A stretch of DNA of 64,000 nucleotides from Thermodesulfobacteriota bacterium (GTDB lineage: Bacteria > Desulfobacterota > BSN033 > UBA1163): positions 25,120-89,119 of the forward strand of contig JBEKWN010000001.1 in assembly GCA_049513055.1 (NCBI GenBank), written 5' to 3'. The notes under the pieces are model-generated. The model had not been told where the DNA came from. It searched no databases and was given only the letters and a program-made list of their open reading frames with translations. Each line of letters begins with the position of its first letter. The first letter of the stretch is position 1. Shown here piece after piece: positions 1 through 31,807 of the stretch. The translations under genes and the position numbers were made by a program.

Positions 1-1
1 G

Positions 2-5576: not shown

Positions 5577-6857
5577 ATGGAGGGAATTGAATTGATACAA
5601 AAAACAATCGTACTTGTATCAACCTTAGATACGAAAGGTTCCGAAGCAGCTTTTTTAAAAGGTCTTATCCAAGCAAGAAGGCATCGGGTCATTCTTTTGG
5701 ACACGAACACTGGGGGTGAGGCCTCCCTTTCTCCTGATATCTCTGCGAGAGAGGTGGCGAAAGCAGCAGGATGGGATATTGAAGAGATCAAGAAGATGAA
5801 GGATACAGAGAAAGCCTCCTCGATTATGATTCAAGGGGCCATCAAAAAAGTCAAAACTCTTTTAGATAAAAAAGAACTCGACGGGATTCTTTCTTTCGGA
5901 GGTGCCTCCAATACCGCGATCGCCACAACGATTATGAAGTCCCTTCCCTTTGGGATCCCCAAAGTCATGCTCTCCAGCACAGCTGCCATGCCTGCTTATG
6001 CCGGAGGATATTTTGGTACCAAAGATATCGCCATGATCCATTCGGTGGTGGACATTGCGGGATTTAATCCACTGGTCAAAGATGTATTGAAGAGGGCTGC
6101 CGGGGCAATCTGTGGAATGGTGGAAATGGGTGAAGGGCTTTCCTTCCTTCCCAGTGTGGCGAGAAAAAAAGATTTGATTGCCTTGACGGAATTCAAATTC
6201 TCAGAAGAATGCTGTTCCCATGTCAGGCGTCTTTTAGAAGAAAAGGGATTTGAAGTGATCCCCTTTCACGCCCAGGGGAGCGGGGACAGGGCGATGGAGG
6301 ATTTAATTGGAGAGGGATTCTTCCAAGGGGTAATGGATATTGTTCCTGCGGGAGTAGGAGAAGAACTCCTGGGAGGAAACCGGGCTGCAGGTCCGAATCG
6401 TTTGGAAAGTGCTGGGGAAAAAGGAAACCCCCAGTTAATTACCCCTTGCGGATTTGATATGCTCAGTTGTGGCCCATTGGAGAGAGGGGATCGCGGAGAT
6501 CCTCTTTGGGTTTCAAAGGATATTAAAAATCGAAAACTCTTCATTCCTGACGCATTCCGGGTTCAAGCCCGCACCAATGCTCAAGAACTGAGGGAGATTG
6601 CAAAAGAAGTGGCCAGAAAATTAAATCGATCAAAAGGACCTGTCACCATTCTCATTCCGTTAAAGGGATGGTCTTCTCTCGACAAGGAAGGAATGCCTCT
6701 CTATGATCCAGAGGCAGATCAGGCTTTCATTCATGAATTAAAGATCCACATCGACCCCAAAATAAAAGTCATTGAGCTCGACCTCCACCTCAATACCCGT
6801 GAATTTGCAGAGGAGGCCGTGAATCAATTTATGAAGCTTTACAAAAGAGAGCCCTGA
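5577..6857 (+). CDS. UPF0261 / Tm-1-like family protein
   Basis: N-terminal TIVLVSTLDTKGSE nucleotide-binding-like motif and overall ~420 aa architecture typical of UPF0261; possible TTG start at 5592 with GGAGGG RBS. Confidence 0.65.
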   Translation: MEGIELIQKTIVLVSTLDTKGSEAAFLKGLIQARRHRVILLDTNTGGEASLSPDISAREVAKAAGWDIEEIKKMKDTEKASSIMIQGAIKKVKTLLDKKELDGILSFGGASNTAIATTIMKSLPFGIPKVMLSSTAAMPAYAGGYFGTKDIAMIHSVVDIAGFNPLVKDVLKRAAGAICGMVEMGEGLSFLPSVARKKDLIALTEFKFSEECCSHVRRLLEEKGFEVIPFHAQGSGDRAMEDLIGEGFFQGVMDIVPAGVGEELLGGNRAAGPNRLESAGEKGNPQLITPCGFDMLSCGPLERGDRGDPLWVSKDIKNRKLFIPDAFRVQARTNAQELREIAKEVARKLNRSKGPVTILIPLKGWSSLDKEGMPLYDPEADQAFIHELKIHIDPKIKVIELDLHLNTREFAEEAVNQFMKLYKREP

Positions 6858-7014: not shown

Positions 7015-7932
7015 TTATGAAGTGGCCATGGCACTTGGCAGGACCGATTCTTTTTTTAACTCCTTCACCATTTTCAGAAAGGCTTGGCTCGGAGGGGAGA
7101 GAGATTTTTCACCATGGTAAATGATATCGGTAAAGAAAATAATGTTACCCTCTTCAATGGGTATGACTTTTAAGGTCCCCTCCTCCAGTTCCTCCTTGAT
7201 ATCGGGTTCAAACATGAAAGACACCCCTTTGTTCTGCTTCACATAGCCCACAATAAAGTCCAGACTGCTTGCTTCAATAATCACCGATGGCCAGATCCCA
7301 TATTCCTGAAATTTTCTCAGAATGGCCGTTCTGGAACCAGACCCCTTCTCCCTCAAAATTACCGGTTCACCATTCAATTCTCTCAGGGAGATACTCTTTC
7401 GTTGTGAAAACCTATGTTCTGGCGAAGCAACCAGAACAAACTCTACCGTTGAGAAAAAGATGGATTTGATTTTTCGGTCAAGGTTCAGTTGGGAGATAAG
7501 GGCAAGTTCATTCTTCTTCTCAAGGACACTCTTCGCCATATCCTCAGAGTTCCCTTCATCCAAAATCACTTTGATGCGCGGGAATCTCCTTTGAAACTCG
7601 GAGAGCAAGGAAGGCATGATGTAACGAGCATAATTTTTCGTTGTTCCAATTTGAAGCGTTCCTCTCATCAATTTCTTGAAGTCCCTCATTTTCTCATTGG
7701 CATCAGACACGAGATCAAAAATCTTCTCAGCATACTGGTAGAGGAGCTCTCCCGCTTCGGTCAACTGCATTCTTTTCCCTACTTGTTGAATGAGTTTCAA
7801 ATTCAACGACTTTTCCAAGGATTTGACCTGGATGGTGACAGCAGGTTGGGTCACATTCAACTCTTCTGCTGCGCGAGTAAAACTTTTTTTCTTTATAACT
7901 AAATAAAATGCCTCCAGTTGTCTGAGATTCAA
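7015..7932 (-). CDS. LysR-family transcriptional regulator
   Basis: N-terminal HTH MNLRQLEAFYLVIKKKSFTRAAEELNVTQPAVTIQVKSLE, C-terminal substrate-binding domain; TTG start with AGGAGG RBS; divergent from the oxidoreductase operon. Confidence 0.9.
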   Translation of the reverse strand: MNLRQLEAFYLVIKKKSFTRAAEELNVTQPAVTIQVKSLEKSLNLKLIQQVGKRMQLTEAGELLYQYAEKIFDLVSDANEKMRDFKKLMRGTLQIGTTKNYARYIMPSLLSEFQRRFPRIKVILDEGNSEDMAKSVLEKKNELALISQLNLDRKIKSIFFSTVEFVLVASPEHRFSQRKSISLRELNGEPVILREKGSGSRTAILRKFQEYGIWPSVIIEASSLDFIVGYVKQNKGVSFMFEPDIKEELEEGTLKVIPIEEGNIIFFTDIIYHGEKSLSPPSQAFLKMVKELKKESVLPSAMATS

Positions 7933-8319
7933 AAAATCCTCCTAAAAAAATATTGTTTCATCTATGTTGTAATATTAGCGATGTGCTGTAAAATACCATT
8001 TCACTGTCACTCTCTCGGAAGCGGGAGTCCACAATAGGTTGGAAAAACTGGATTCCTGCTTTCCCAAGAATGAAATCTTAAATTTAAGAAAGAAATTTTC
8101 AACAACTGCAGAGGGTAGAATCCCGTTAAGCAGGGCCCTTTAGGCGACTTAAGTCGCCCCTACCCATATTTAGAGTAATAATTTTTACCATTCATCTTCT
8201 ATCTAATATACTTCTCTTGTACTTTGAATTCACAATATTAATGCTTCAAAACCTTTTGAAATATATATGATTTCTGAATTATTATAAGTTTTTTTTATGG
8301 TATTATAAGAATAATTGTA

Positions 8320-8348
8320 TTGACATGTCAATACTGAAAAATATAGTT
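8320..8348 (+). promoter_or_regulatory. Candidate sigma70-type promoter (-35 TTGACA 8320-8325, 17-nt spacer, -10 TATAGT 8343-8348); -35 embedded in 12-bp palindrome TTGACATGTCAA
   Basis: Sequence read directly in the AT-rich LysR/oxidoreductase divergent intergenic region. Confidence 0.3.
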
Positions 8349-8407
8349 TCTAATACACCCTACCTTTTTAACTATGGAAAATCATCAATAGGAAAGGAGA
8401 GAGAGTT

Positions 8408-10024
8408 ATGCCCCAATATGATGGCATTATTATTGGTGGTGGGCCGAATGGACTCACTTTAGGTTGCTACCTTGCCAAAGCAGGGCTAAAGATCCTGATC
8501 CTAGAAAAGAGATACGAAATGGGAGGAGGCCTTTGCTCGGAGATGATTACGATCCCTGGATTTATTCACAATACCCATGCGATCTACCATCCCATGGTGG
8601 ATTATGCACCGGTCTTTCCCGATCTCCAATTGGATCAAACGTATGATCTAAAATATATCCATCCTGAGGTCGTCATGGCCATGCCCTTCTTAGACGGAAG
8701 GAGTCTCTGCATTTACTCTGATGTGGAGAAAACATGCGCTTCATTTGCACAATTTTCTAAAAAAGACGCTGATGCTTATCGAGAGACCTATGAACGCTTC
8801 AAACGCTATACTGATGCCTTTCTCGCACCCGCGACCTATGTGATGGCCAAGCCAGCTTTCGAACAGGTCGTGAAACTCCATTCCAGTCCTCTTGGCCAGG
8901 AAATCAGCGCCCTTTCTGAAAAGAAACCAATCGATATCGTCCATAGCATTTTTGAAAATAATCAAATCAGGACACTAATGCTCTATGCCACCTGTCTGTG
9001 GGGATTGGATTATGATCTGGAGGGGCTGGGTTACCTGGTTCCACTCATGATCAATCGAGCTTCCAACTACCGTCTCTGTGTGGGAGGCTCTCACCATATG
9101 GCAAACCTGATGTCCAAATTCCTTTATAGAAATGGAGGAATGATACTTGGAAGTCAAATCATTAAAAGAATCATTGTGGATAAAGGTGTTGCAAAAGGGG
9201 TTGAATTAGATGATGGAACGGTCTACGAGGCCACTAAGTTTGTTGCCTCAAGCATTGACCACCACCAGACCTTCCTCAAATATATTGGAGAGAAGGATTT
9301 ACCAAAAGATCTTGTCATACGGACAAAGGACTGGAAGTGGGAGAAATGGTCCCTCTTCGATACCCATCTGGCCCTTTTCAATCCACCCCAGTTCACAGCT
9401 GCCTCTTCAAATCCTGACCTCCCAAAGGCTTTTATCTATGTGGTCGGTTTTGAGACAGAGGAGAATCTGATTGAGCATTTCAAGGCTTTGAAAAATGGAG
9501 AGCTTAAATCTTCCGGGTTTAATTGTTGTTTTCCAACATTCTTTGATCCCTCCGAGGCACCTCCGGGAAGGCATACCGGGCTGATCTCAGAACATGCCCC
9601 TTACCGCCTTAAGGACGGAGGCCCTGAGAAATGGTATAAAATCCGTCAGGAACACGCGAAGCAAAACATTAACATACTCAAAAAATATGCTCCTAATATG
9701 ACTGAAGAAAATATCCTCTGGACCTATATCGCCTCCCCACTCGATATCGAAAATAAGTTCTCTGATATGGTTGAAGGATCGATCAAGCAAGGAGGTTATT
9801 TTCCTCTTCAAATGGGATTTCTAAGACCGAACGAATTATGTTCTCAGTACGCGACACCTATTAAAAACCTCTATCTCTGCGGAGCCTGTTGCTTCCCTGG
9901 AGGATTGGTCACTTACGGCCCGGGATATAATGCAGCCAACCGGATTGCAGAAGATCTCGGGATCCAAAAGTGGTGGAAGGAACCGGAGATCGTAACCCAG
10001 GCAAAGGCAAAAGGTCTTTTATGA
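8408..10024 (+). CDS. FAD/NAD(P)-dependent oxidoreductase, phytoene-desaturase (CrtI)/amine-oxidase superfamily (paralog 1)
   Basis: N-terminal dinucleotide-binding motif [31 protein letters not shown], ~540 aa, strong RBS. Confidence 0.8.
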
Positions 10025-10087
10025 GGTTTCTGAAAAACTCTTTATCAGAAACCTCATAGAGATTTCTGGACTTTTTTCAGAAATCTC
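10023..10087 (+). terminator. Two tandem hairpins after the oxidoreductase stop: GAGGTTTCTGA-N11-TCAGAAACCTC and GAGATTTCTG-N9-CAGAAATCTC followed by TTTT, immediately before the next RBS
   Basis: Perfect 11-bp and 10-bp inverted repeats read directly; second followed by T-run. Confidence 0.4.
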
Positions 10088-10104
10088 TTTTCAGGAGGTT
10101 CACC

Positions 10105-10338
10105 ATGAAAGTCAATTCGACAGGTTTGGGCCAGACCACCATGATTGCGTCCTTTACTCAACTCTTTAAAGATCCAGACGGAGGGGAGGCCCTGAAATTA
10201 AAAATCGAGTCTTCAGAACCCATCCACTGGGTCATCACTGCCACCCTGGAAGGAGCGGACCTGAGGAACTTCATCAAGCTCCTCTTAAAACCCTCTATCC
10301 TCTATTACGCCATTTCACTGATGATGAAGAAGAAATAG
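10105..10338 (+). CDS. Small hypothetical protein (77 aa) between the two oxidoreductase paralogs
   Basis: AGGAGG RBS 7 nt upstream of ATG; no family recognised. Confidence 0.4.
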   Translation: MKVNSTGLGQTTMIASFTQLFKDPDGGEALKLKIESSEPIHWVITATLEGADLRNFIKLLLKPSILYYAISLMMKKK

Positions 10339-10353
10339 AAAAGGAGGAAACCC

Positions 10354-12018
10354 ATGCCAGATACAAGTTATGATGCGATTATCGTTGGTGGGGGACACCA
10401 CGGGACGATCATTGCCTGTTATTTACAACATGCAGGCCTTAAAACAGTGATCTTCGAACGTCAACATGAATTAGGAGGAGGTGCCTGTGGGGAAGAGCTT
10501 CCCTTGCCCGGATTTATCCAGAATACATGTGCCCACTTCACCCGATTCTGGACCCATCCTGCCTATACCGATTTCAATCTGAGGGAATATGGCTTGAAAT
10601 ATATTTTCCCAGACCAGAACGAAGGTATGGTTTATCCAGATGGGACCTGTTTTGTCGGGTATTCTGCGTTCCGTGTCGACCCTTTAACGGGGAAAGAAGA
10701 GTACTCCGAGGAAAATGTCAAGAAGACCTACAACGAGATCGCCCGCTTCTCAAAAACGGACGCAGAGACCTATCTCGATCTCCTGGGAAAATATCAGAGA
10801 AAGTGGAGGGCTGCCTTTCGAGAATACCGTTATAGTCCTCCCACACCCTGGGGAGTTAAGAATGCCCTCGAAAAGCTCTGCGATGATCCCGTAGACGGAA
10901 TCGATCCGGTTTATCAATTCATGACAGGTTCCCAGATCGCTATGGACCTTTTTGAAAGTCCTGAACTCCAGTGTCTTTTCATGAGAGCTATTGAAACCTC
11001 CACTGGCTGCTTCCCTGGGGATGTCATTGGTCTCTATGTCTTTGTCCATGTGATCGGGCTCACCCTCTCCTTTGAATCGGCTTCTATTGTCTATGGTGGA
11101 ACTCATACTATCACACACGCCCTCCAGAGAGCCTTCAGTGCCATGGGAGGGGAGTTCTGTGTGGAGACAGAAATAGATAAAGTAATCATTGAGAATGGAA
11201 GGGCCAAAGGGGTCAAACTCTCGAATGGAATAGAAGTCGAAGCAAAACAGGTGGTGATTAGTGATTTAGGAGTTCCCCAGACGATATTCAGGCTTTTGGG
11301 AGAAAATTATGTCACCCCAAAAGTGGCCAGGCGTATAAGAAACATCCGTTATGACCGTGCCCAGATTTACTGGGGAAATATGGCAATGCATGAGCTTCCA
11401 AAATATAAAGCAGCTTCCTTCAATTCAGATATAGGTCTTCAGCCGCGGCTCTATATGGGAGAGAAGGACCCTGAATACCTCTCCTGGAAATATCAGGCAG
11501 ACATCTTCACAAAAGGGTTTCCTGAAAAATGGTACATCCTTGCAGCCCCGGACAGTATCTGGGACAAGACCCGGGCACCGGAAGGGAAACACACCATTCT
11601 ATTAGAAGAATTTGCGCCTCCATTACACCTCTATAACGAGAAACAGTGGCTCAAAATGAAAAAAGAGGTGGAAGATTTGATGTTGAAGCAATGGCAGATC
11701 TACGCTCCCAACATGACTCGTGACAATGTGATCGAGGCCTTTATCACCACGCCTTATGATACAAACATGAGACATCCCGATATGATCGAGGGCGGGTGGG
11801 TAGAAGGAGCCATGATTGCTTCCCAAAACGACCGATTCAGACCTATCCCAGACCTTTCGAGTTATCGTATTCCTTTCCTTAAAAATATGTACATCTGCTC
11901 CTCCAACATGCATTCTGGTGGTGGTATTGCTCGAGGCTCCAGTTATAATTGCTTCAAGGTCATTGTAGAAGACTTCAAGCTGGACAAGATCTGGGAGAAG
12001 AAAGGAAGAACTTATTAA
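10354..12018 (+). CDS. FAD/NAD(P)-dependent oxidoreductase, CrtI/amine-oxidase superfamily (paralog 2)
   Basis: YDAIIVGGGHHGTIIACYLQHAGLKTVIFERQHELGGG dinucleotide-binding motif; same overall architecture as 8408-10024. Confidence 0.8.
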   Translation: MPDTSYDAIIVGGGHHGTIIACYLQHAGLKTVIFERQHELGGGACGEELPLPGFIQNTCAHFTRFWTHPAYTDFNLREYGLKYIFPDQNEGMVYPDGTCFVGYSAFRVDPLTGKEEYSEENVKKTYNEIARFSKTDAETYLDLLGKYQRKWRAAFREYRYSPPTPWGVKNALEKLCDDPVDGIDPVYQFMTGSQIAMDLFESPELQCLFMRAIETSTGCFPGDVIGLYVFVHVIGLTLSFESASIVYGGTHTITHALQRAFSAMGGEFCVETEIDKVIIENGRAKGVKLSNGIEVEAKQVVISDLGVPQTIFRLLGENYVTPKVARRIRNIRYDRAQIYWGNMAMHELPKYKAASFNSDIGLQPRLYMGEKDPEYLSWKYQADIFTKGFPEKWYILAAPDSIWDKTRAPEGKHTILLEEFAPPLHLYNEKQWLKMKKEVEDLMLKQWQIYAPNMTRDNVIEAFITTPYDTNMRHPDMIEGGWVEGAMIASQNDRFRPIPDLSSYRIPFLKNMYICSSNMHSGGGIARGSSYNCFKVIVEDFKLDKIWEKKGRTY

Positions 12019-12031
12019 AGCGAGGAGGAAT

Positions 12032-12785
12032 CATGAGACTCAAAGATAAAGTGGCAATCGTGACAGGGGCCGCCAAGGGCTTGGGAAGGGAATTCTCCAT
12101 TGGTATGGCAAAAGAGGGGGCCAAGATCATGGCAGTTACCCGAAAGGATCTTGCCAATTTGGAGAAGACGGTAAAGGAGATTGAAGCCTCTGGAGGAGTG
12201 GCGAAAGCTTTCCAGGCAGATGTCTCCATCGAAAAGGATGCCATCAAGATCGCTGAGGAAACATTTAGGGTCTTTGGCAGGATCGACATCTTAGTTAATT
12301 GCGCAGCCATCTACGATGGATTGGTTCGAAAATCCTTCACGGAAGTAGATCCCAATGAATGGGACCAGGTGATGGCTGTGAACGTCAAAGGTCCCTGGCT
12401 CTGCTCAAGGGCGGTATTCCCTTATATGAAACAACAAGGAAAAGGGAAGATTGTCAACCTCTCTTCCGAAGTATTTTTCACGGGGTCTCATGGCTTTATT
12501 CACTACGTGTCTTCAAAGGGAGGGGTGATCGGATTGACGCGAGCCCTTGCCATTGAATTAGGCCCTCATAACATTAACATTAATGCCGTAGCCCCGGGAT
12601 TTACGGATACAGAAGCAAGCCGCCATCTCACCGATGTCACCAAATACGATGTCTCTAAAACCCCCTTGAAGCGACTGGAGCAGCCCAATGATCTTCTGGG
12701 AGCGGTCATCTTCCTCGCATCAAATGAAAGCGATTTCATCACTGGTCAGACCATTTTGGTCGATGGCGGGAGGGCCATGCATTAA
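12032..12785 (+). CDS. Short-chain dehydrogenase/reductase (SDR, FabG-like)
   Basis: TGAAKGLG cofactor motif, YxxxK active-site pattern, ~250 aa, GAGGAGG RBS. Confidence 0.85.
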
Positions 12786-13022
12786 TCCTTTTATCCCCCA
12801 TCATGCCTTCGGCATGGTGGCCTTGAATCCAATACGAACACTCAGGCGTTCAGACTTTTTCGATCGTCACTTTCATGGATGCAGCTTTCGCTGTTGAAAA
12901 GTTTTTTCTATTCTATTCTTCACATAGAATTTCTAAATATCTCAGGGAACCTTTTCGTGGGGGATCTTTCCCGGACAAGATTCCTTTGAGTCGGAAAATT
13001 TTTCGATCGGAGGCCTTAAAAC

Positions 13023-15662
13023 ATGCAGGAGATAAATTTCATCTTGAATGGAGCCCCTCGAAGAGTCATCGTTGATCCTCAAAAAAGTTTGCTGAAAGTG
13101 ATTCGAGAAGATCTAAGGTTGACAGGTACTAAGGAAGCATGCTCTGCCGGTCATTGCGGCACCTGTGCTGTGCTAGTGGATGGTGAAGTGGTTCTCGCCT
13201 GTAGATATCCTGTGGCCAAAGTCCAGGGCAAAGAGGTAACGACCATCGAAGGCATTGGCACTCTCAGGAATCCTCATCCACTTCAATTGGCCTTTGCAAA
13301 GACGGGAGCCATTCAGTGTGGCTTTTGCACACCGGGGATGATCGTCCGGACGAAGTCCCTTTTGGATGGAAATCCTAAGCCCAAAAGGGAAGAGATCAAA
13401 AAGGCTATTCAGCCTCATCTTTGTCGTTGTACGGGCTACCAGAAGATCTTTGAGGCTGTAGAACTCGCTGCCTCTTATATGCGAGGGGAAACGAAATCAA
13501 TTGAATTAAAATTAGAAGGAAAGGACACCATTGGCCAACCCGTGACACGAAAGGACGCCCTCGAGAAGGCAACAGGAACCATCCTCTATGCGGGTGACCT
13601 CACTGTGGACGGATGTGCCCATATCAAAGTTCTGAGAAGTCCTCATCACCATGCCAAAATCTTACACATCGACAAGACCGAAGCAGAAACCATACCCGGT
13701 GTGTTAGCCGTGCTCACAGCTGAGGATGTGAAAGGGACCAACATCCTGAAGATGGCTGGAGATGATCAACCCATCTTAGGCGTGGGTAAGGTCCGTTTCA
13801 TCGGTGATCCTGTCGCAGCAGTTGTGGCAACCTCTGAGGAAATTGCTTCTCATGCCATAGAGAAGATCGAGGTGACCTATGAACCCTTAGAACCAATACT
13901 TACCCCAGAGGAGGCATTGAAAGAGGGGGCGATAAGGGTCCATGACGATCGTTCAAACCTCTTTTTTGAACAACCCATCATCCATGGCGACGTTGAAAGG
14001 GGTTTTTCAGAGTCGGAGGTAGCCATTGAGCGAACCTACACAACACAAACCGTTGAACATGCCTACTTAGAAAACGACTCCGGCGTTGCTTTTATCCACG
14101 AAAATGGCCAACTGGTCATCCTATCCCCAAGTCAGAACATTCACGCTCACCGCAAGACCATCGCAGAAGCCCTCGGTCTCAATGTGGAAAAGGTCCGGGT
14201 GATCCAAACTCCCATGGGCGGGGCATTTGGCGGAAAACTGGATGTTTCCGTAGGTGGAATCCTTGGACTGGCTGCCTTGAAGCTTAAAAGGCCGGTGAAG
14301 CTTGCCTATACGAGGAGTGAAACCTTTGCGGCTACCCCAAAACGTCACCCCTTCTTCATGAAGGTGAAAGTGGGGGCCAAAAAAGACGGAACGTTGATGG
14401 CATTAGATTTTGATCTCACAGCAGATGGCGGGGCATATAAGTCTTTTAGCAATAGTGTGACTCAACGAGGCCTTATCCATTCCCAGGGACCTTACCGATT
14501 CACCAATGCCCATGTCTACGGGAAAGCTGTTTATACGAATACAGCTTTCAAAGGTGCGATGAGAGGTTTTGGCGTACCCCAAGTCGCCTTTGCCATTGAG
14601 TCGATCCTTGATGAACTGGCATCGGAACTGAAAATAGATCCCTTAGCCATAAGGGTGAAAAACGGTTTTGTGAAAGGGGATACGACAATCTGCGGCCAGG
14701 TATTAGACCACGCTATTGGTTTTCGGGAGTGTATGGAGACCCTAAAGCCTCTTTATGAGAAAGCATTAAAAGAGGCTAAAAAGAGCACAACGGATGAGAT
14801 CAAAAGGGGAGTGGGTTTAGGAGGGGTTTGGTTCGGTCCGGGCCGAAGCGCCCCAGATCAATCTGAGGCATGGGCAGAACTTTTACCTGATGACACCTTA
14901 CAGGTTTGGATCGGAGCAGCGGACATGGGACAAGGTACGGACACGATGTTCTGGCAAATTGCTACAGACACAATAGGATTTCCCCTGGAGAGAGTCAAAG
15001 TCTGTACAACAGATACTGAGATCACACCGGACGGAAACTTTTCCGCTGGAAGCCGGCAGACCTATGTCTCAGGGAGAGCCGTCCAGATGGCCGTGGAAGA
15101 ATTGAAAAAGGCCATGGATGAAAACGGTGTTAAGACGTATAGCGAGATGAAGGCAAAGGGCTTGCCTACTCTTTATAAAGCAATCAACAAACCTGTGACT
15201 TCGAGGCCTGATCCGAAGACTGGCCAGGGAGTTCCTTGGGAGACCTATTCTTTCGGAATCCAAATGGCTGAAGTGGCTGTGGAAGTAAAAACGGGTAGGG
15301 TGAATGTCCTCAAGATAATCTCTGTCCATGATCTCGGAACTGTGATCAATCGCCTCAATGTAGAGGGCCAACTCCACGGAGGCATCTGTATGGGTCTTGG
15401 ATATGCCCTCATGGAAGAGTTTATTTACAATAAGACCGATAGCTTTGCCAAATTTAAGATACCTAGAGCGAAAGACATGCCTGACATGGAAGTGATCACC
15501 CTCAATATCCCCAGGAAGAAAGGACCCTTTGGTGCTTCCGGCACCGCAGAATATGCAGATGTCCCAACTGCACCGGCTATTGCAAATGCTATCTACAATG
15601 CCTGTGGTGTCCGTATCCGGGATTTACCGATCACTCCCGAGAAGATCAGGCAATCTCTGTAG
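13023..15662 (+). CDS. Molybdopterin aldehyde oxidoreductase of xanthine-dehydrogenase family with fused N-terminal 2x[2Fe-2S] domains, no FAD domain (D. gigas Mop-like)
   Basis: CSAGHCGTCAV plant-type and QCGFCTPG...CRCTGY second 2Fe-2S motifs, MGGAFGGK MoCo-domain motif, C-terminal catalytic Glu region; 879 aa. Confidence 0.85.
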   Translation: MQEINFILNGAPRRVIVDPQKSLLKVIREDLRLTGTKEACSAGHCGTCAVLVDGEVVLACRYPVAKVQGKEVTTIEGIGTLRNPHPLQLAFAKTGAIQCGFCTPGMIVRTKSLLDGNPKPKREEIKKAIQPHLCRCTGYQKIFEAVELAASYMRGETKSIELKLEGKDTIGQPVTRKDALEKATGTILYAGDLTVDGCAHIKVLRSPHHHAKILHIDKTEAETIPGVLAVLTAEDVKGTNILKMAGDDQPILGVGKVRFIGDPVAAVVATSEEIASHAIEKIEVTYEPLEPILTPEEALKEGAIRVHDDRSNLFFEQPIIHGDVERGFSESEVAIERTYTTQTVEHAYLENDSGVAFIHENGQLVILSPSQNIHAHRKTIAEALGLNVEKVRVIQTPMGGAFGGKLDVSVGGILGLAALKLKRPVKLAYTRSETFAATPKRHPFFMKVKVGAKKDGTLMALDFDLTADGGAYKSFSNSVTQRGLIHSQGPYRFTNAHVYGKAVYTNTAFKGAMRGFGVPQVAFAIESILDELASELKIDPLAIRVKNGFVKGDTTICGQVLDHAIGFRECMETLKPLYEKALKEAKKSTTDEIKRGVGLGGVWFGPGRSAPDQSEAWAELLPDDTLQVWIGAADMGQGTDTMFWQIATDTIGFPLERVKVCTTDTEITPDGNFSAGSRQTYVSGRAVQMAVEELKKAMDENGVKTYSEMKAKGLPTLYKAINKPVTSRPDPKTGQGVPWETYSFGIQMAEVAVEVKTGRVNVLKIISVHDLGTVINRLNVEGQLHGGICMGLGYALMEEFIYNKTDSFAKFKIPRAKDMPDMEVITLNIPRKKGPFGASGTAEYADVPTAPAIANAIYNACGVRIRDLPITPEKIRQSL

Positions 15663-16046
15663 CCTCTTTAAGGAGGGGGGGATTTTTGCAACGAAGCCAA
15701 TAGAGGTTTGATCTCTAACAAGATTATCGCTGCAATGATTTGTCGAAGTTAAAATGCAATCCAATAGCTTTCAGTATAGGGTGAATATCGGAAACTTCAT
15801 TGTGAAAATTGAAACTTAAAAAACTACTTGATTTCTTCATTTCCTGTCGGTATAGTTCTGTCTATTCGACAGGTCGTAAGCCATTTTATAACAATTTATT
15901 TTCTTAAATGAAGAGGGTCATGAATATGACCTGGTGAAAGGAGGGGGTGTGTATGGAAGGATAACCTTCATTATCAATACACCAGAGGATGGTGGGGAAT
16001 TGAGAATCTTTCAAGAGGAGTCCAATAAGCATTCAGGAGGTGAAAA

Positions 16047-17732
16047 ATGAAAATTTATGATGTGGTACCAGGATTTGAGTTTGATGAGAAGTATGATTTA
16101 GAGCAATCGCCGGCTTGGTTTCTCGACGCCACCCACTCTGTCCCCCCGTGGACACCCATGTTCGGGTGGTTCTGGATCAATTTCTGCCGACACGGAATGC
16201 AGTATGGCGCTGAGACCCTCTCCCTTCCCACTGTGAAAGGATGGGACTGGCGCTTTAAAGATGGAGGTGGCTATCTAACCCTCCTCATGGTCGATTCCGA
16301 TAAAGAAAAGGCGGAAAGGGAGAAGAAGTTTAGAGAAGCCATTAGGCCCTTTGTGGAGAATTATGATGGTCTTTGGGGTGGTTACGTTAAGGAGATCCTG
16401 AAAAGATATGATAATTTGAAAGTCCTCGACGTCAACACTGCTTCGAATATCAAACTTCTTGAAAACTTCGAGGAGGTCATCGATACTTGTCGAAGAATGT
16501 GGGAAATCCATATGCACATGATGTATGGGACTTATACGCCCTATGTCCTATTTGAGCAACTCTGCATGCAGTTGTTGAACATCGATGATACCCATCCCAC
16601 TTTCCACAAGTTAGTGGCCGGCTTTGACAACGAAAGTTTTCGAGTAGACCGTAGGCTCTGGGAGTTCTCCAAGAAAGCAAAGGATATGGGTCTTGAGAGC
16701 CTCTTCATGGGGACTCCTTCAAAACAGATGAAGGCCAAATTGGGGGAGAGTGATAAAGGAAAGAAATATTTGAAAGAGTTTGATGAATTCCTTGATAAAG
16801 AAGCCGGCTGGAGGATGGAACGAATGGCTGAGATTAATGTCCCCACCTGGCAAGAGGATCCTACCCCAGGTTTTGAAACGGTAAAGATGTATCTTAAGAA
16901 AGGTGGGGATTTCGACTTAGATAAAGACCGTAAGAAGATTGAAAAGGAAAGGAAAGATGCAGAAAAAGAGGTCTTGGCTAAGATCGCTCCCGAGCAGAAG
17001 GGTTGGTTCTCCATGCTGATGAAAGTGGCTCAGAATTGCAGCCGTTTCAGTGAGGAGCACAATCATTATCTCGATCTCTACACCCACGCGTTGATGAGAA
17101 GATCCTGTATGGGATTGGGAAATCGATTCGCTAAATGTGGAGCGATTAACCAACCCGAGGATATTTTCTTCCTCATGCCTGATGAGGTGAGAAAGGCTGG
17201 GATTAATCCTGATAAACTCAATCTCAAACCCATCGTCCAACGTCGACGGAAAGAATGGGAAGAATGGAATCAAAGAGGTAATCCCCCTGCTATCTTTAAA
17301 GAAGGGTTTACTTTGGAGCAGGCGATCGGAGGATTAGTCCAATCTCTTGATCCAATCGCCCTCAAAGTAGTGGTGGGAAGCATGCCCGTACCAAAGCCTG
17401 AACTCAAGGCAGACCTCTTGGGAACCTGCGGATCTTCAGGCATGGCGGAAGGGGTTGCTCGAGTAGTCCTCAGAGATGAAGACCTACCGACCATCCAGAA
17501 AGGAGATATTCTTGTAGCAATGAGCACTTCTCCAGCCTGGACGCCCGTGTTTAGTATGATCAGCGGGGTCGTGGTGGATAGAGGGGCGAGCCTCTCCCAT
17601 GCCGCTATTGTTGGAAGGGAGTATGGAATCCCTGTTGTGATGAATGTGTTTACCGGCACCCAGGTGATCAAGTCAGGTCAAAGGATCCGGGTAGACGGAA
17701 ACTTGGGAGCCGTTTACATCCTGGACAAATAA
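16047..17732 (+). CDS. PEP-utilising enzyme family protein with C-terminal phosphohistidine mobile domain (split pyruvate,water-dikinase-like enzyme, subunit A; phenylphosphate-synthase-alpha-like)
   Basis: C-terminal GASLSHAAIVGREYGIPVV phosphohistidine domain motif; 561 aa; translationally coupled to next gene. Confidence 0.7.
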   Translation: MKIYDVVPGFEFDEKYDLEQSPAWFLDATHSVPPWTPMFGWFWINFCRHGMQYGAETLSLPTVKGWDWRFKDGGGYLTLLMVDSDKEKAEREKKFREAIRPFVENYDGLWGGYVKEILKRYDNLKVLDVNTASNIKLLENFEEVIDTCRRMWEIHMHMMYGTYTPYVLFEQLCMQLLNIDDTHPTFHKLVAGFDNESFRVDRRLWEFSKKAKDMGLESLFMGTPSKQMKAKLGESDKGKKYLKEFDEFLDKEAGWRMERMAEINVPTWQEDPTPGFETVKMYLKKGGDFDLDKDRKKIEKERKDAEKEVLAKIAPEQKGWFSMLMKVAQNCSRFSEEHNHYLDLYTHALMRRSCMGLGNRFAKCGAINQPEDIFFLMPDEVRKAGINPDKLNLKPIVQRRRKEWEEWNQRGNPPAIFKEGFTLEQAIGGLVQSLDPIALKVVVGSMPVPKPELKADLLGTCGSSGMAEGVARVVLRDEDLPTIQKGDILVAMSTSPAWTPVFSMISGVVVDRGASLSHAAIVGREYGIPVVMNVFTGTQVIKSGQRIRVDGNLGAVYILDK

Positions 17733-17733
17733 G

Positions 17734-18789
17734 ATGCCTCCAAGAAAAACGACGCAAAATATCATCTGGTTCAAAGACTGTTCAGGGAAGAACTTTCCTC
17801 AAGTAGGGGGTAAAAATGCAAATTTAGGTGAGATGTTTAAACTCGGCCTCCGAGTCCCACCTGGATTTGCCGTCACCACGTATGCCTTTGACACTTTTAT
17901 AGAGAGAGGGAGGGTTCGAAACGAAATTGTGAGAACCCTCTCTCAAATTCCCTTTGAGGATATCAAAGCCTTGGAGGAAGCAGGTCTTCAGATTCGAGAT
18001 CTTATCGAATCTACCCCCATTCCTAAAAATATTGTTAAAGAGATCAAAGAAGCTTATAAAAAATTAGGCGACCTCTGTGGAGTGGCGGATCTCCCCGTTG
18101 CCGTCCGATCCAGTGCCACTTCCGAAGATCTGAAGACGGCCAGCTTCGCCGGACAGCATGAATCTTACCTCTGGGTTAGAGGTAAAGAGGAAGTGATCCA
18201 ACACATATTGAAATGCTGGGCAAGCCTGTTTACAAATCGTGCCATCGCTTATCGAAATCAGATCGGGTGGCCTCATGATAAAGTGACCATTAGTGTTGGA
18301 GTTCAGAAGATGGTCAATGCCAAATGTGCGGGAGTGATGTTCACGATTGATCCGGTGGTCGGAGATCCAGAGAAGATAGTCATTGAAGGCAATTGGGGAT
18401 TGGGCGAGAGCGTGGTCAAAGGAGAGGTCTCTCCAGACCACTTCCTGGTGGATAAAAAATCGCTCGAGATTTTAGAGAAGATGATCTCTCCGAAAACCCT
18501 CTGCTATGAGTTGGTAGAAGATAAGGTCATCTGTATCGAACCTACCCTCGAAAGGCAGAATGAGCCATGCATCGATGATGAAGCATTGATGGAACTGGTC
18601 CGGCTCGGTAAAATCGCAGAAGCCCATTATCAATCGGCTCAGGATTTGGAGTGGGCCATCGATGTTGATCTCCCCTTCCCTGAGAATGTTTTTCTTGTCC
18701 AGACCCGGCCCGTGACAAGTGCGGGGAAACCAAAACAGAGCAATACGGATATCATTATCGATATGATGTCCTCCCTTTTCAGAAGATAA
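17734..18789 (+). CDS. PEP synthase/pyruvate phosphate dikinase N-terminal ATP-grasp nucleotide-binding domain protein (split enzyme subunit B; phenylphosphate-synthase-beta-like)
   Basis: FPQVGGKNANLGEM motif typical of PPDK_N domain; 351 aa; start 1 nt after previous stop. Confidence 0.7.
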   Translation: MPPRKTTQNIIWFKDCSGKNFPQVGGKNANLGEMFKLGLRVPPGFAVTTYAFDTFIERGRVRNEIVRTLSQIPFEDIKALEEAGLQIRDLIESTPIPKNIVKEIKEAYKKLGDLCGVADLPVAVRSSATSEDLKTASFAGQHESYLWVRGKEEVIQHILKCWASLFTNRAIAYRNQIGWPHDKVTISVGVQKMVNAKCAGVMFTIDPVVGDPEKIVIEGNWGLGESVVKGEVSPDHFLVDKKSLEILEKMISPKTLCYELVEDKVICIEPTLERQNEPCIDDEALMELVRLGKIAEAHYQSAQDLEWAIDVDLPFPENVFLVQTRPVTSAGKPKQSNTDIIIDMMSSLFRR

Positions 18790-18836
18790 GCGGGCTCTTC
18801 TTCCTCTCCGGTCATGAAAGGGAATTGGAGGAACCT

Positions 18837-19157
18837 ATGTATGTCCGAATGACCTTTTTCAAATTAAAAATAGGCAAGATGCAGGAGTTACGCGAGACTT
18901 ACAATAAGGAGGTTGTTTTAGCTCACAAAGGCCATAAGGGAATTCGCTTCGTCCATCTCCTTGAGTCTTTAGACAATAAAGACGAAGGGATTTCTATCAC
19001 CGCATGGGATACCAAGGCAGATGTCGAGGCCTATGAGAAGAGCGGAGACTACGAAAAACTGGTTGCGAAATTCAAGGACATGTATGCCGAGGAACCGTTG
19101 CTTAAATCCTATGAGGTGACCGCCAGCTCTGATCCCATCATCCTTCGTATATTTTAA
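18837..19157 (+). CDS. ABM (antibiotic biosynthesis monooxygenase)/Dabb-fold small protein
   Basis: ~105 aa, alternating beta-alpha pattern; GGAGG RBS before ATG 18837 (ORF track start 18825 is TTG). Confidence 0.45.
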   Translation: MYVRMTFFKLKIGKMQELRETYNKEVVLAHKGHKGIRFVHLLESLDNKDEGISITAWDTKADVEAYEKSGDYEKLVAKFKDMYAEEPLLKSYEVTASSDPIILRIF

Positions 19158-19174
19158 CCCACTGGGAGGGAAAG

Positions 19175-19834
19175 ATGATCTTTTTATTTAATCAACACTG
19201 GGACATTATCCCCGGGAAAGAAGAAGAATACACAAAATTTGCCATCAATCATTACATTCCTACCATGAAAAAGATCGGTATCAATCCGGTAGGAGGATTT
19301 TATGTGGTAGTGGGGGAAGGTCCCGGGGTCATCTCGGTGGGGACAGTGGATTCGTTACAAAAACTCCAAAAGGCCATGGAAACAGAAGAGTATGAGAAGG
19401 TAACGGCTCAGGTCCAGTGTTATGTCTTCAATTATTGTAGCAGAATTCTTAAGCCCACAGGGAGGGTGAAAACAGATAAATATACGATTCAATTAAGGGT
19501 ATGGAAATTTAACCAATATTTTAATATCATCCCTGGGAAAGAGAAAGAATACTCGGAGTTTATCACAAAGGATCATCTCCCGACCATAGAAAAACTGGGT
19601 ATCAAGATGACGGGCGGATGGCAGGTAGTGGTAGGCTCTGGTCCTTATATCGTTGCAGAAGGAACCGCGACAAGTATTGTCGATATTGCCAAGGCCCTTG
19701 AAAGTGAGGAATACAAACGAATCACAAAGATATTGACATCCAAGTATGTGACTGACTATAGCAGCCGCATCCTCGCTCCAACTGGCCGTATCGAACTTCC
19801 TTATCTTCTGGAAAAAATGATGAAGGGATTTTAG
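19175..19834 (+). CDS. Protein made of two tandem ~100-aa ABM/Dabb-like repeats
   Basis: Internal duplication visible: HWDIIPGKEEEYTKF...SRILKPTGR vs YFNIIPGKEKEYSEF...SRILAPTGR. Confidence 0.5.
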   Translation: MIFLFNQHWDIIPGKEEEYTKFAINHYIPTMKKIGINPVGGFYVVVGEGPGVISVGTVDSLQKLQKAMETEEYEKVTAQVQCYVFNYCSRILKPTGRVKTDKYTIQLRVWKFNQYFNIIPGKEKEYSEFITKDHLPTIEKLGIKMTGGWQVVVGSGPYIVAEGTATSIVDIAKALESEEYKRITKILTSKYVTDYSSRILAPTGRIELPYLLEKMMKGF

Positions 19835-19865
19835 AGTTCAGAGTTGAAAATCTAAAGTTGTAGGG

Positions 19866-20462
19866 ATGAAACGGATTTATCAGAAAATTTTTGAGCGGGC
19901 GAAACCCTTCCTCCGTACTCGAAAAAACCTCATTCACACAAAGATTGCCCTCCGGTATGCCTTAAAGCTTCTAAATCACGAAAAAGGGGAAGAAGAAATT
20001 GCTATCCCTGCAATCATTCTTCACGATGTGGGCTGGAAGACCGTCCCTGAAAACTTACACCTGACTGCTTTTGGTCCAAACCCATCTAATCCTAAATTGG
20101 CAAGAGTTCATGAAGTAGAAGGAGCAAAAATAGCTAAAGCCATTTTGGAGAAATTACATTATCCTCCTGCAAACGTAAAAGAGATCTATCAAATCATCCA
20201 AGGACACGATTCAAGAAAAAGACCCATCTCTTGGAATGATCGAATTGTTAAGGATGCGGATAAACTGACCCGTTATTCTCGAAAGGGTATGACCATTGAT
20301 TTGGGTCGGTTCCAGGTTCCAACGGGAATTCATATCAATTTTTTAGAAGGGAAGGTCGAAGAATGGTTCCTCCTCCTCACCTCTCAGAAGTTGGCTAGAG
20401 AAGAAATAAACAGAAGAAGAAAAGAGATGATTGCAGTTGACAAAACCTCTTTGACTTTCTAA
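19866..20462 (+). CDS. HD-domain phosphohydrolase
   Basis: H...HD motif (ILHDVGW) and downstream D; 198 aa. Confidence 0.65.
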   Translation: MKRIYQKIFERAKPFLRTRKNLIHTKIALRYALKLLNHEKGEEEIAIPAIILHDVGWKTVPENLHLTAFGPNPSNPKLARVHEVEGAKIAKAILEKLHYPPANVKEIYQIIQGHDSRKRPISWNDRIVKDADKLTRYSRKGMTIDLGRFQVPTGIHINFLEGKVEEWFLLLTSQKLAREEINRRRKEMIAVDKTSLTF

Positions 20463-20478
20463 AATCGGAACCAATCCA

Positions 20479-20904
20479 ATGAAAAGATTTTTGGTTGAAA
20501 TTTCAAAAGGTAGATTCAAAATTCACGGCCTTGTCCAAGAGTTGGGCCAAGACATCCTGGTTTCCATCTGGGGAGGAATCCGACCTCACATCGGTGCTGT
20601 GGGAATGGCCATCCCGAGATCCAGCTTGAAGAATCAAAAAAAGTGGAGCGCCACCTCTTCCAATTTTACTTTCGTCGGCCATAAAGAGGATACCTTGGTA
20701 AAAAAGATTTCAGAAAGGTTGGCAGCTCGATTGAGAAGAAATGTGGTGGTCACCGCAGGTGTCCACTGGGATGGGATCACTTCCAAAGAGATTAAGATTA
20801 TCCAAAATCTCACACAAAAAATATCAGACCAGATTCAAAAAAAAATCCTGTCTGCTGGCAGGCAGGGGAGAAGACAAAATGAAGACCCTAAAAAAAAGGC
20901 CTGA
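20479..20904 (+). CDS. Hypothetical protein (141 aa)
   Basis: ORF in operon context; family not recognised. Confidence 0.35.
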   Translation: MKRFLVEISKGRFKIHGLVQELGQDILVSIWGGIRPHIGAVGMAIPRSSLKNQKKWSATSSNFTFVGHKEDTLVKKISERLAARLRRNVVVTAGVHWDGITSKEIKIIQNLTQKISDQIQKKILSAGRQGRRQNEDPKKKA

Positions 20905-22228
20905 TTTCTACTGGAATCCGATTGTGGAGACTCTCCCATTGGAAAGATTGAGAGAACTTCAGGCCAGAAAATTTAAAAAAATTCTGGAGTGGGCTTACGA
21001 GAGATCAAAGTTTCATCGAAAGCTTTATCAGGAGGCAGGGCTTGAACCGGGTGATATCAAATCCTATGAAGATATAGCCAAAGTGCCTAAGGTGGAAAAG
21101 TCAATGATGAGAGATATCCAGAGAAAGGATCCCTTCCCTTATGGAGATGCTCTCTGTGTTCCTTTGGAAGAGGTCACGGAATTTCGGCAGACCAGTGGAA
21201 CAACCGGAACTCCAGTCTATCAACCTGATACCTGGCAGGACTGGGAATGGTGGTCTGAATCCTGGGCTTACCTCCTCTATGCACAAGGTTATCGAAAAAC
21301 GGACCGAGTATTCCTTCCCTTCGGATATAATATTTTTGTCGCCTTCTGGGCAGGTCATTATGCGGCTGAAAAGATCGGTTGTGAAGTCGTCCCAGGCGGA
21401 GTCCTCGATACAGAGGCTCGTATTCTTAAAATCCAGGAACTTCGGGCCACCGCCATGATGGCCACCCCGACTTATGTATTAGGAATGGCCGATACCGCTA
21501 AGAAGAAGCTGGGCATTGATCCAGCTCGAGATCTCACCATCAGAAAGATCACCTGCGCAGGCGAGCCAGGTGCAAGCATTCCATCTACCAAGCAGAGAAT
21601 GGAAGAGGCCTGGGGGGCGAAGGTCTATGATCATGTGGGGGCTACAGAGATCGGGGCTTGGGGCTTTGAATGCACGGCCCAACCCGGCGGCCTTCATGTC
21701 AACGAAGCCCTCTTTCTCACTCAGTTAGAGGATATTGAAACAGGAGAGATGATTGAAGAACCGGGGCGAAAGGGGAAGATTGTCATTACCGCCCTTGACC
21801 GGATCGCCCAGCCCTGCATTCGATTCGACTCCAAGGATGTGGCAGAATGGTCGAAAGAACCCTGTCCCTGTGGAAGAACATTCCGCATCATTCAGGGAGG
21901 GGTCGTTGGAAGGGCAGATGACATTACAAAAATCAAAGGTGTTTTGCTCGCTCCTTCAGCCATTGAAGAAGTGGTTCGCTCTATTAAATGGCTGAGTAAT
22001 GAATTTGAGGCGGTGGTCACGAAGAAAGGAGATCTTGACGACATCACACTCAAGATCGAAATTTTACCAGGAGAGGAAAAAAATCGTGAGGCCATCCTCA
22101 CCCAACTGAAGGATCAACTACGATTAAAAACGAACCTGGGTTACAACATCGAAGTTCATCCATTCAATTCCTTGCCTCGTTACGAGGTGAAGGCCAAACG
22201 ATTTAAAGATCTGCGGAAACATGGATAG
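20879..22228 (+). CDS. Phenylacetate-CoA ligase (PaaK)/coenzyme F390 synthetase family adenylate-forming enzyme
   Basis: N-terminal PaaK-type region (YWNPIVETLPLERLRELQ...), AMP-binding core TSGTTGTP; start taken at ATG 20879 rather than upstream ORF-track start. Confidence 0.75.
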   Translation: MKTLKKRPDFYWNPIVETLPLERLRELQARKFKKILEWAYERSKFHRKLYQEAGLEPGDIKSYEDIAKVPKVEKSMMRDIQRKDPFPYGDALCVPLEEVTEFRQTSGTTGTPVYQPDTWQDWEWWSESWAYLLYAQGYRKTDRVFLPFGYNIFVAFWAGHYAAEKIGCEVVPGGVLDTEARILKIQELRATAMMATPTYVLGMADTAKKKLGIDPARDLTIRKITCAGEPGASIPSTKQRMEEAWGAKVYDHVGATEIGAWGFECTAQPGGLHVNEALFLTQLEDIETGEMIEEPGRKGKIVITALDRIAQPCIRFDSKDVAEWSKEPCPCGRTFRIIQGGVVGRADDITKIKGVLLAPSAIEEVVRSIKWLSNEFEAVVTKKGDLDDITLKIEILPGEEKNREAILTQLKDQLRLKTNLGYNIEVHPFNSLPRYEVKAKRFKDLRKHG

Positions 22229-24320: not shown

Positions 24321-24333
24321 GGTTTATGATCCC

Positions 24334-25047: not shown

Positions 25048-25051
25048 AGGA

Positions 25052-31804: not shown

Positions 31805-31807
31805 TTT

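Follow-up and report, generated by a model that had tools for sequence, protein, structure and literature searches.

A conserved gene unit of uncultured anaerobes that may direct an anaerobic, phosphate-tagged oxidation of a phenolic methyl group

Introduction

Which reaction is carried out by an operon that places two paralogous CrtI/CrtO-family flavoproteins together with a short-chain dehydrogenase/reductase (SDR), a molybdenum aldehyde oxidoreductase, a split phosphoenolpyruvate (PEP)-synthase-like dikinase and an HD-domain phosphohydrolase? The question is raised by bases 8408-20462 of a 64,000-nucleotide stretch of DNA from an uncultured Thermodesulfobacteriota bacterium (metagenomic contig JBEKWN010000001.1), the whole of which is termed the window. 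A first-pass annotation made from the DNA letters described the region as a LysR-controlled redox and catabolic island in which the flavoenzymes, SDR, molybdenum enzyme and a PaaK-family ligase might convert an amine or alcohol through an aldehyde and an acid to a coenzyme A (CoA) thioester. All the genes it named are found at the positions and on the strands given there by the open reading frame (ORF) listing and by Pfam, NCBIfam and PDB family scans (Table 1), and the array has, as was suspected, no gene-for-gene match to any characterized pathway. The split dikinase and the HD hydrolase, for which no explanation was offered at that stage, are the most informative pair in the array.

The reading put forward here, to which we give about an even chance of being correct, is that the conserved unit 8408-20462 performs an O2-independent, phosphorylation-initiated oxidation of the benzylic or allylic methyl group of a phenolic compound, with p-cresol or another methylphenol as the likeliest substrate. 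By analogy the unit is most likely an anaerobic counterpart of the Cre system of Corynebacterium glutamicum, with the flavoprotein pair standing in for the cytochrome P450 and a molybdenum or tungsten enzyme for the aldehyde dehydrogenase. The domain families of the gene products, their conserved linkage and the homology of the HD, SDR and dikinase proteins to proteins of Cre-type clusters are established. Searches of the open-access literature on CtmAB/limonene dehydrogenase, CreHI, cresyl phosphate and phenylphosphate synthase gave no description of the operon; each of the component families has been described before, as has, in aerobes, the logic of the phosphate tag, and the combination as an O2-free pathway appears to be undescribed.

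Conservation of the unit in related genomes

The 80 best loci retrieved from species-representative genomes with a profile of the second flavoprotein (FAD2; the first is termed FAD1) all belong to metagenome-assembled genomes (MAGs) and are distributed over the Thermodesulfobacteriota, Bacillota, Chloroflexota and Actinomycetota. The loci from Thermodesulfobacteriota are Syntrophaceae-like or come from Desulfomonilaceae, Desulfobacterales and Desulfarculales, and those from Bacillota include Thermincola and Desulfosporosinus. Linkage was assessed by tblastn of the window proteins together with de novo ORF clustering in 60 loci of at least 12 kb, and genes were counted in the 42 loci that extend downstream of FAD2 by 8 kb or more.

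The conserved order is a LysR gene on the minus strand and, diverging from it, FAD1, a small ORF, FAD2, the SDR, the dikinase components PpsA' and PpsB', a NIPSNAP-like and/or ABM protein and the HD protein. The FAD1 and FAD2 genes are adjacent in every one of the 60 loci. PpsA' is present in 41 of the 42 counted loci, with PpsB' and the SDR in 39 each. The Mop-type molybdenum enzyme and a tungsten aldehyde oxidoreductase (AOR, with AFOR_N/AFOR_C domains) each occur in 20 loci, at least one of them in 38 and both in 2. The HD protein is found in 33 loci and an ARMT1/DUF89 phosphatase in 14 (either in 35), the NIPSNAP-like protein in 29 and the ABM protein, next to the dikinase, in 25. Linkage of the array far exceeds chance, and the early description of a catabolic array associated with LysR is borne out, the array being conserved as well; the genes are clearly linked in the 42 loci that have sufficient flank. 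The FAD1 cluster at 90% identity alone has 516 members, and the operon, which abounds in metagenomes from peat, groundwater and sediment, carries generic annotations. The window proteins have identical copies on about 25 public contigs, likewise carrying only generic NCBI or JGI names.

Relationship of the HD and SDR proteins to Cre clusters

A tblastn search of 72,556 plasmids with the HD protein gives two matches only, both located within Cre-type clusters of Rhodococcus (L091 and L092), with 30-41% identity to the HD protein of the clusters (E values of 2e-15 to 5e-23), and a homologue search of a 5.8-billion-protein set returns close relatives only (at least 69% identity). Compared over its full length with the SDRs encoded in two Cre-type clusters of Rhodococcus, the SDR shows 44% identity, and these clusters take 6th and 9th place among the 2,326 plasmid records that it matches (top 0.4%). 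The Rhodococcus clusters are arranged as IclR, P450, PEP/pyruvate-binding protein (CreI), PEP-utilizing protein (CreH), SDR, 2Fe-2S ferredoxin, flavin adenine dinucleotide (FAD) reductase, HD protein and aldehyde dehydrogenase, an order that mirrors creJ-I-H-G-F-E-D-C of C. glutamicum. On a plasmid of Rhodococcus JS3073 (L090) the dikinase genes have neither an HD nor an SDR homologue in their vicinity.

In C. glutamicum CreHI phosphorylates 4-cresol, the P450 system CreJEF hydroxylates the methyl group, and the alcohol dehydrogenase CreG and the aldehyde dehydrogenase CreC oxidize the product to the acid (PMC7764795, PMC12167813, PMC9549646); CreD is tabulated as a phosphohydrolase (PMC7764795). 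A transient phosphate tag has been established experimentally for Cre acting on 4-cresol and for Hpe acting on acetovanillone (PMC12167813, PMC9618137, PMC7764795, PMC9549646), and an operon that encodes both a kinase and a phosphatase implies such a tag on an intermediate. The window unit shares this logic with Cre: in both, a single operon provides for a two-component dikinase, an alcohol dehydrogenase of the SDR family, a phosphohydrolase of the HD type and an aldehyde-oxidizing step. It differs in that Pfam scans find no P450, ferredoxin or reductase, the CrtI-family flavoprotein pair occupying that place, and no aldehyde dehydrogenase-family gene in the array, where a molybdenum or tungsten aldehyde oxidoreductase replaces the NAD-dependent enzyme. 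The regulator is of the LysR rather than the IclR family, the substrate subunit of the kinase is only 25-29% identical and the hosts are strict anaerobes. The Hpe system for hydroxyacetophenones (HpeHI kinase, HpeCBA carboxylase and HpeD phosphatase) is similar in using a dikinase tag that a dedicated phosphatase removes after the side chain has been changed, whereas its side-chain reaction is a biotin-dependent carboxylation, its phosphatase is of the NagD/HAD type, not HD, and it is aerobic and actinobacterial.

A second phosphatase occurs in the closest relatives, with the gene for an ARMT1/DUF89 "damage-control phosphatase" lying between Mop and PpsA' in L008, L009, L012, L014, L018 and L020; Pfam assigns the L008 and L046 genes as ARMT1-like. 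When this part of L008 (15475-16335) is aligned with the corresponding spacer of the window only 384 bp are present in the latter, and the window lineage has lost, or never gained, the second phosphatase.

The two-component dikinase

The catalytic His-518 of PpsA' lies in GASLSHAAIVGRE, which conforms to the conserved GG.(T)S/C-H-AA-I/V motif, and is preceded by a serine as in PpsA and CreH. Residues 232-560 have rifampicin phosphotransferase as their best PDB match (5HV1 and 5FBS). PpsA' proteins of this operon type are 52-70% identical to one another and form a separate clade. Two-component phenol kinases have been described as PpsAB, CreHI and HpeHI (PMC12167813), and the domain composition of PpsA'B' indicates that its architecture is theirs.

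The ATP-grasp component PpsB' is 49% identical to the protein in the PpsB position of Azoarcus KH32C (a PEP/pyruvate-binding gene of the ppc locus) and 41% identical to the Rhodococcus CreI-like protein. The B subunits that this operon encodes in other lineages are 41-43% identical to it, and in L011, L014 and L016 PpsA' is 48-85% identical, yet the B subunits are 44-46% identical. Since PpsB' is closer to the Azoarcus protein than to the B subunits of its own operon type, the comparison suggests that the ATP-grasp subunit of the window was replaced.

The split dikinase is a point of similarity with the phenylphosphate synthase PpsABC and its carboxylase, and several relatives of the unit have a pps/UbiD gene set next door. 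The differences are that the window unit has neither a UbiD-type carboxylase nor the CBS-domain subunit PpsC, that PpsA' is 25-27% identical to PpsA, and that the phosphate here would leave by hydrolysis rather than serve carboxylation. The canonical phenol pathway was rejected as an identity for the unit on the missing UbiD carboxylase and the distance of PpsA' from PpsA.

Downstream of the dikinase, the tandem NIPSNAP-like protein, predicted as a dimeric α+β barrel, has no PDB sequence match. ABM proteins are also seen in an aerobic cluster on the megaplasmid of Thermomicrobium roseum (NC_011961, 50300-69907; L088) together with UPF0261, PEP-hydrolase-family and PpsB-like proteins, a PpsA-like protein (28% identity to PpsA'), and molybdenum and iron-sulfur subunits of the xanthine dehydrogenase (XDH) family; this is another uncharacterized pairing of a dikinase with a molybdenum enzyme. 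In a Chloroflexi MAG (JACQYF010000176, 6623-9136; L007) an 837-amino acid ORF fuses residues 1-434 of a protein homologous to PpsA' (60% identity) to domains 2-3 of AOR, lacking both the swivel histidine domain and AFOR_N, and is a deletion chimera or an assembly artifact.

The flavoprotein pair and the 77-amino acid protein

FAD1 and FAD2 are 28% identical over their full length and have the CrtO ketolase/CrtI family as their top NCBIfam match. The AlphaFold2 model of FAD1 is confident (pLDDT 85) and its top fold matches are the carotenoid desaturases 4REP and 4DGK, which rank above amine oxidases. The N-terminal motif of FAD1 agrees with the flavinylation motif G-F-L/R-x-N/S-T/L-H-A of limonene dehydrogenase (CtmAB) and Δ24 steroid desaturase (Δ24-SD) (PMC11061730). 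Motifs of the PGF[LIVM]HNTHA type are present in 90 of 120 FAD1 homologues, the orthologues mostly having GFLHNTHA. The corresponding segment of FAD2 reads GF[LIV]QN[PT]CA in every orthologue examined, and Cys-59 and His-61 are invariant in four sequences from three phyla; from its position Cys-59 could form a cysteinyl-flavin link, or FAD2 could be a non-covalent subunit. The Cys-free 77-amino acid protein, which the first-pass annotation overlooked, is encoded in nearly all related loci (37-98% identity), always between the two flavoprotein genes, and has zero Pfam or NCBIfam matches.

The characterized enzymes with a two-paralogue layout are CtmAB from Castellaniella defragrans and Δ24-SD from Sterolibacterium denitrificans only (PMC4109377, PMC11061730). 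CtmAB catalyzes the water-dependent hydroxylation of limonene at its allylic methyl group, CtmA and CtmB are 27% and the α and β subunits of Δ24-SD 26% identical, and in both enzymes each subunit carries its flavin covalently on the motif histidine (PMC4109377, PMC11061730). Subunits of the two enzymes share 34-38% identity with one another, and the sulfate reducer NaphS2 has a protein with 41% identity to CtmB. The window pair resembles them as two adjacent paralogous COG1233/CrtI-family subunits of about 27% mutual identity with a flavinylation motif at the N terminus of FAD1, a likeness of motif and layout rather than of alignment to CtmA and CtmB. Plasmid tblastn for a CtmAB-type comparison finds relatives of at most 31% identity with uninformative annotation. 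The differences are the cysteine of FAD2, where CtmA, CtmB and both desaturase subunits have histidine, the conserved 77-amino acid ORF between the genes and the linkage to a dikinase and a phosphatase. The flavoprotein connected with benzene in strain BzS1 (PMC13416013) is a member of the glycolate-oxidase/VAO family, unrelated to the pair.

Because the two proteins are a conserved CrtI/CrtO paralogue pair and FAD1 has the covalent-flavin motif, FAD1 and FAD2 are more likely to perform the first C-H oxidation, from methyl group to alcohol, than to oxidize amines or alcohols separately. The initial scheme, in which the flavoproteins are amine or alcohol oxidases yielding an aldehyde, Mop forms the acid, PaaK the CoA ester and a Liv-type transporter imports the aromatic acid or amine, is accordingly given a low probability. 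The weak Pfam Amino_oxidase match of FAD2 and the fold that amine oxidases share are compatible with that scheme, as is the presence of the SDR, Mop and PaaK genes, but CrtI-type desaturases outrank amine oxidases in both fold and family matches and the flavoproteins are obligately paired paralogues with a small third ORF. It also leaves the near-universal dikinase and phosphatase without explanation and depends on PaaK and Liv genes that are not conserved with the unit.

The aldehyde oxidoreductase

The closest PDB matches of Mop, which is a single polypeptide, are the MOP structures from D. desulfuricans and D. gigas (1DGJ, 584 bits; 1SIJ, 582 bits), which extend over the full length, compared with 342 bits for XDH or 4-hydroxybenzoyl-CoA reductase. 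The NCBIfam model NF045668 gives 824 bits, under its equivalog cut-off of 1100. In relatives the position of the gene is variable or the tungsten AOR is found in its stead, and this interchange of molybdenum and tungsten aldehyde oxidoreductases speaks for an aldehyde intermediate. With the SDR nearly universal and Mop and the tungsten AOR interchangeable, the order alcohol, aldehyde, acid that was proposed at the outset is very likely.

A different role for Mop would be that of a hydroxylase acting with the dikinase on the ring of a phenol or a hydroxy-N-heteroaromatic compound, in the manner proposed for the 3-hydroxypyridine dehydrogenase HpdA, with the flavoproteins and SDR working later. 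The activity of HpdA genetically requires a PEP-utilizing protein and a dikinase (bioRxiv 10.1101/2020.01.08.898148), Mop of the window is directly upstream of PpsA', and the T. roseum megaplasmid links PpsA-like, ABM and XDH-family genes. This explanation is nevertheless very improbable: Mop belongs to the aldehyde-oxidoreductase type and not to the hydroxylases that have FAD and SRPBCC subunits, its position varies and the tungsten AOR replaces it in half of the relatives, and the SDR and phosphatase would have no role. The interchange of Mop and tungsten AOR together with the CreD-like HD protein argues both against a ring hydroxylation by Mop and against the oxidase-first scheme.

Proposed pathway and substrate

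For the methyl oxidation of a tagged phenol we infer the substrate, a hydroxylase activity of the flavoprotein pair and the following order of steps. PpsA'B' would form an aryl phosphate, converting ATP to AMP and Pi by way of phospho-His-518. A complex of FAD1, the 77-amino acid protein and FAD2 would then take a hydride from the methyl group onto the covalent flavin, and addition of water would give a benzyl alcohol phosphate. The SDR would oxidize the alcohol to the aldehyde and Mop, or the tungsten AOR in other lineages, the aldehyde to a phospho-hydroxybenzoate. The CreD-like HD hydrolase would then cleave off the phosphate, with the DUF89 phosphatase of relatives acting in addition or instead. 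In this lineage the PaaK-like ligase may subsequently form a CoA thioester for the benzoyl-CoA route.

The need for an aldehyde-oxidizing enzyme points to a methyl group, which yields a primary alcohol, and away from the benzylic carbon of an ethyl or longer chain; the allylic methyl group of a propenylphenol of the isoeugenol type would fit equally. A ppsAB-UbiD-ligase-CBS gene set is immediately upstream of the unit in 5 of the 42 loci and UbiD and ligase genes are present in 7. In Thermincola a regulator with XylR_N, V4R, GAF and HTH_30 domains replaces LysR. Regulators of the XylR_N/V4R type sense aromatics, and these phenol-type gene sets and the Thermincola regulator support a phenolic substrate.

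The substrate might instead be an isoprenoid. In that case the flavoprotein pair would hydroxylate a terpenoid or sterol-like side chain at an allylic methyl group, the SDR and Mop or AOR would carry the product to an acid, and the dikinase and phosphatase-like proteins would activate a tertiary alcohol so that elimination of phosphate gives an allylic alkene, as in the anaerobic degradation of the cholesterol side chain. Limonene and stigmastadienone are the substrates of the only characterized enzymes related by the flavoprotein motif, the Ctm/Geo pathway continues through the same sequence of alcohol, aldehyde, acid and CoA ester as is envisaged for the window, the sterol pathway has a phosphoester intermediate whose lyase is still unidentified, and the divergent substrate domain of PpsA' leaves room for a non-phenolic compound. 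Opposed to these are the facts that the only plasmid relatives of the HD protein are in cresol-type Cre clusters, that known two-component dikinases act on phenols, and RPH on rifampicin, and that the neighboring gene sets in relatives are of the phenol rather than the terpene or steroid type. HD proteins are moreover phosphohydrolases and not lyases, and the sterol pathway draws its enzymes from other families. On balance we consider an isoprenoid substrate unlikely. A gene-for-gene equivalence with the anaerobic sterol side-chain pathway was rejected, the molybdenum enzymes of the latter belonging to the DMSO-reductase family and its kinase being an unrelated phosphotransferase-family enzyme little like known ones.

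Several observations weigh against the oxidation of a phosphorylated methylphenol. None of the 80 best loci is from an isolate with known physiology. The equation of the HD protein of Cre clusters with CreD comes from gene order and the function table of PMC7764795, not from a sequence comparison with the C. glutamicum protein. PpsA' shares only 25-29% identity with Azoarcus PpsA and the CreH-like (Rhodococcus) and HpeH-like proteins, the mutual identities of these being 43-47%, and falls outside the phenolic-kinase clade with its pairwise identities of about 45%; as a result of this divergence the substrate-binding domain lends no support to a phenol. FAD2 lacks the flavinylated histidine and has cysteine in that position. 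Family scans of 5577-27119 find no ferredoxin or ferredoxin reductase genes like those of CtmEF, and no electron-transfer partner is evident in the array. The ABM, NIPSNAP-like and 77-amino acid proteins are conserved yet have no role in the model (the last beyond its placement as a candidate third subunit), and the window contains no 4-hydroxybenzoyl-CoA reductase or benzoyl-CoA pathway genes. The conversion of ATP to AMP on cresol is also costly, and strict anaerobes have ATP-free routes in p-cresol methylhydroxylase and fumarate addition.

A more specific version of the proposal, which we hold tentatively and rate somewhat below an even chance, is that FAD1, the 77-amino acid protein and FAD2 constitute a new O2-independent C-H hydroxylase for aryl-phosphate esters, perhaps with a cysteine-bound flavin, and that with the deep-branching dikinase and the CreD-like phosphatase they form an unrecognized, ATP-dependent anaerobic methylphenol pathway widespread in four phyla. 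The substrates meant here are cresols or methyl- or propenyl-phenols derived from lignin or peat. Anaerobic activation of the cresol methyl group is known by two routes, through the flavocytochrome p-cresol methylhydroxylase and through fumarate addition (in part PMC4148979). If the proposal is true, the unit would provide a third route to the cresol methyl group, ATP-dependent and flavin-based, and a new form of C-H oxidation without O2. The enzyme family of limonene dehydrogenase would extend to aromatic, phosphate-tagged substrates, and the strategy of protecting with phosphate, oxidizing and deprotecting used by the aerobic Cre and Hpe systems would operate in strict anaerobes too. A functional assignment would improve the reading of carbon cycling and contaminant fate from many MAGs, and the pair is a possible source of a catalyst for O2-free benzylic hydroxylation.

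Table 1. Features of the window discussed in the text, in order of position
Feature	Position	Strand	Assignment or remark
AcrB-type RND pump fragment	50-1921		within GC-rich start
Outer-membrane efflux protein	1923-3482		within GC-rich start
UPF0261 (Tm-1-like ATP-binding) protein	5577-6857	+	Pfam UPF0261, UPF0261_C
LysR-family regulator, divergent from operon	7015-7932	-	Pfam HTH_1, LysR_substrate
Divergent control region, LysR-FAD1 spacer	7933-8407		
FAD1, CrtI/CrtO-family flavoprotein, His flavinylation motif GFIHNTHA (His-57)	8408-10024	+	
Conserved 77-amino acid Cys-free protein, candidate third subunit	10105-10338	+	gene call in public assemblies
FAD2, paralogous CrtI/CrtO-family flavoprotein, GFIQNTCAH, Cys-59 replacing flavinylated His	10354-12018	+	
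SDR alcohol dehydrogenase, CreG-like	12033-12785	+	Pfam adh_short
Mop-type molybdenum aldehyde oxidoreductase, 2x[2Fe-2S] and Mo domains, without FAD domain	13023-15662	+	Pfam
Mop-PpsA' spacer, possible internal terminator and promoter	15663-16046		
PpsA', substrate-binding and phosphohistidine swivel component	16047-17732	+	Pfam PEP-utilizers, Rph_4th
PpsB', ATP-grasp component	17734-18789	+	Pfam PPDK_N, 362 bits
ABM-fold protein	18837-19157	+	Pfam ABM
Tandem NIPSNAP-like (dimeric α+β barrel) protein	19175-19834	+	weak Pfam NIPSNAP
HD-domain phosphohydrolase, CreD-like	19866-20462	+	Pfam HD
LpdD/PF21758-family protein (prenyl-FMN chaperone family), lineage-specific	20479-20904	+	Pfam PF21758
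PaaK-family acyl-CoA ligase, lineage-specific extension	20879-22228	+	Pfam AMP-binding, AMP-binding_C_2
Liv-type ABC transporter with two permeases, two ATPases and a binding protein	22484-27119	-, convergent	Pfam

Control regions, neighboring genes and composition

The LysR gene occupies the same divergent position in 44 of the 60 loci. The spacer between it and FAD1 contains near-consensus sigma-70-like sites at 8320-8347 on the plus strand (11/12) and 8331-8302 on the minus strand (12/12), and the spacer after Mop has a terminator-like hairpin at 15663-15681 followed by a promoter-like site at 15828-15856 before PpsA'; all are consensus matches only. The terminator-like and promoter-like sites between Mop and PpsA' hint at two transcription units, one from FAD1 to Mop and the other from PpsA' to PaaK. 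Upstream of the regulator, the UPF0261 gene, which like the LpdD-family gene had escaped the first annotation, has a homologue as a frequent neighbor of the unit (29 of the 60 loci), and in loci of the Desulfomonilaceae type it is found inside the adjacent ppsAB-UbiD-ligase-CBS gene set.

Downstream of the HD gene the arrangement is specific to this lineage. Among the related loci the LpdD-like gene is found elsewhere only in L009, in the window it overlaps the start of the PaaK-like gene by 26 nt, and no UbiD or UbiX genes are seen in the annotated part of the window. The PaaK-like ligase scores 239 bits with TIGR02155, under the cut-off of 646, which denotes family membership only. The ligase is present as first described and is not a conserved part of the unit: it occurs in 5 of the 42 loci, and in L008, the closest relative, HD is the last gene of the operon. 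The Liv-type uptake system is likewise present, on the opposite strand and convergent, and is not conserved with the unit; beyond the window's own contigs (L001 and L002) weak permease and ATPase matches are seen in L020 only (28-40% identity).

The term island receives no backing from composition, the guanine plus cytosine (GC) fraction of the array (0.43-0.48) being that of the rest of the window. The deviating stretch is bases 1-4000 only, with a GC fraction of 0.55-0.56 before an abrupt fall to 0.43, and this GC-rich start could be a horizontal acquisition or an assembly junction. An Rfam scan of the window gives zero matches, so the GC-rich start is not rRNA. Further downstream, 29437-33799 and 41290-43806 encode large multiheme cytochromes with 8-12 paired CXXCH motifs, accompanied by NHL-repeat and β-propeller proteins, a peptidyl-prolyl isomerase and a sigma-54 two-component system, a region that looks like an extracellular electron-transfer module.

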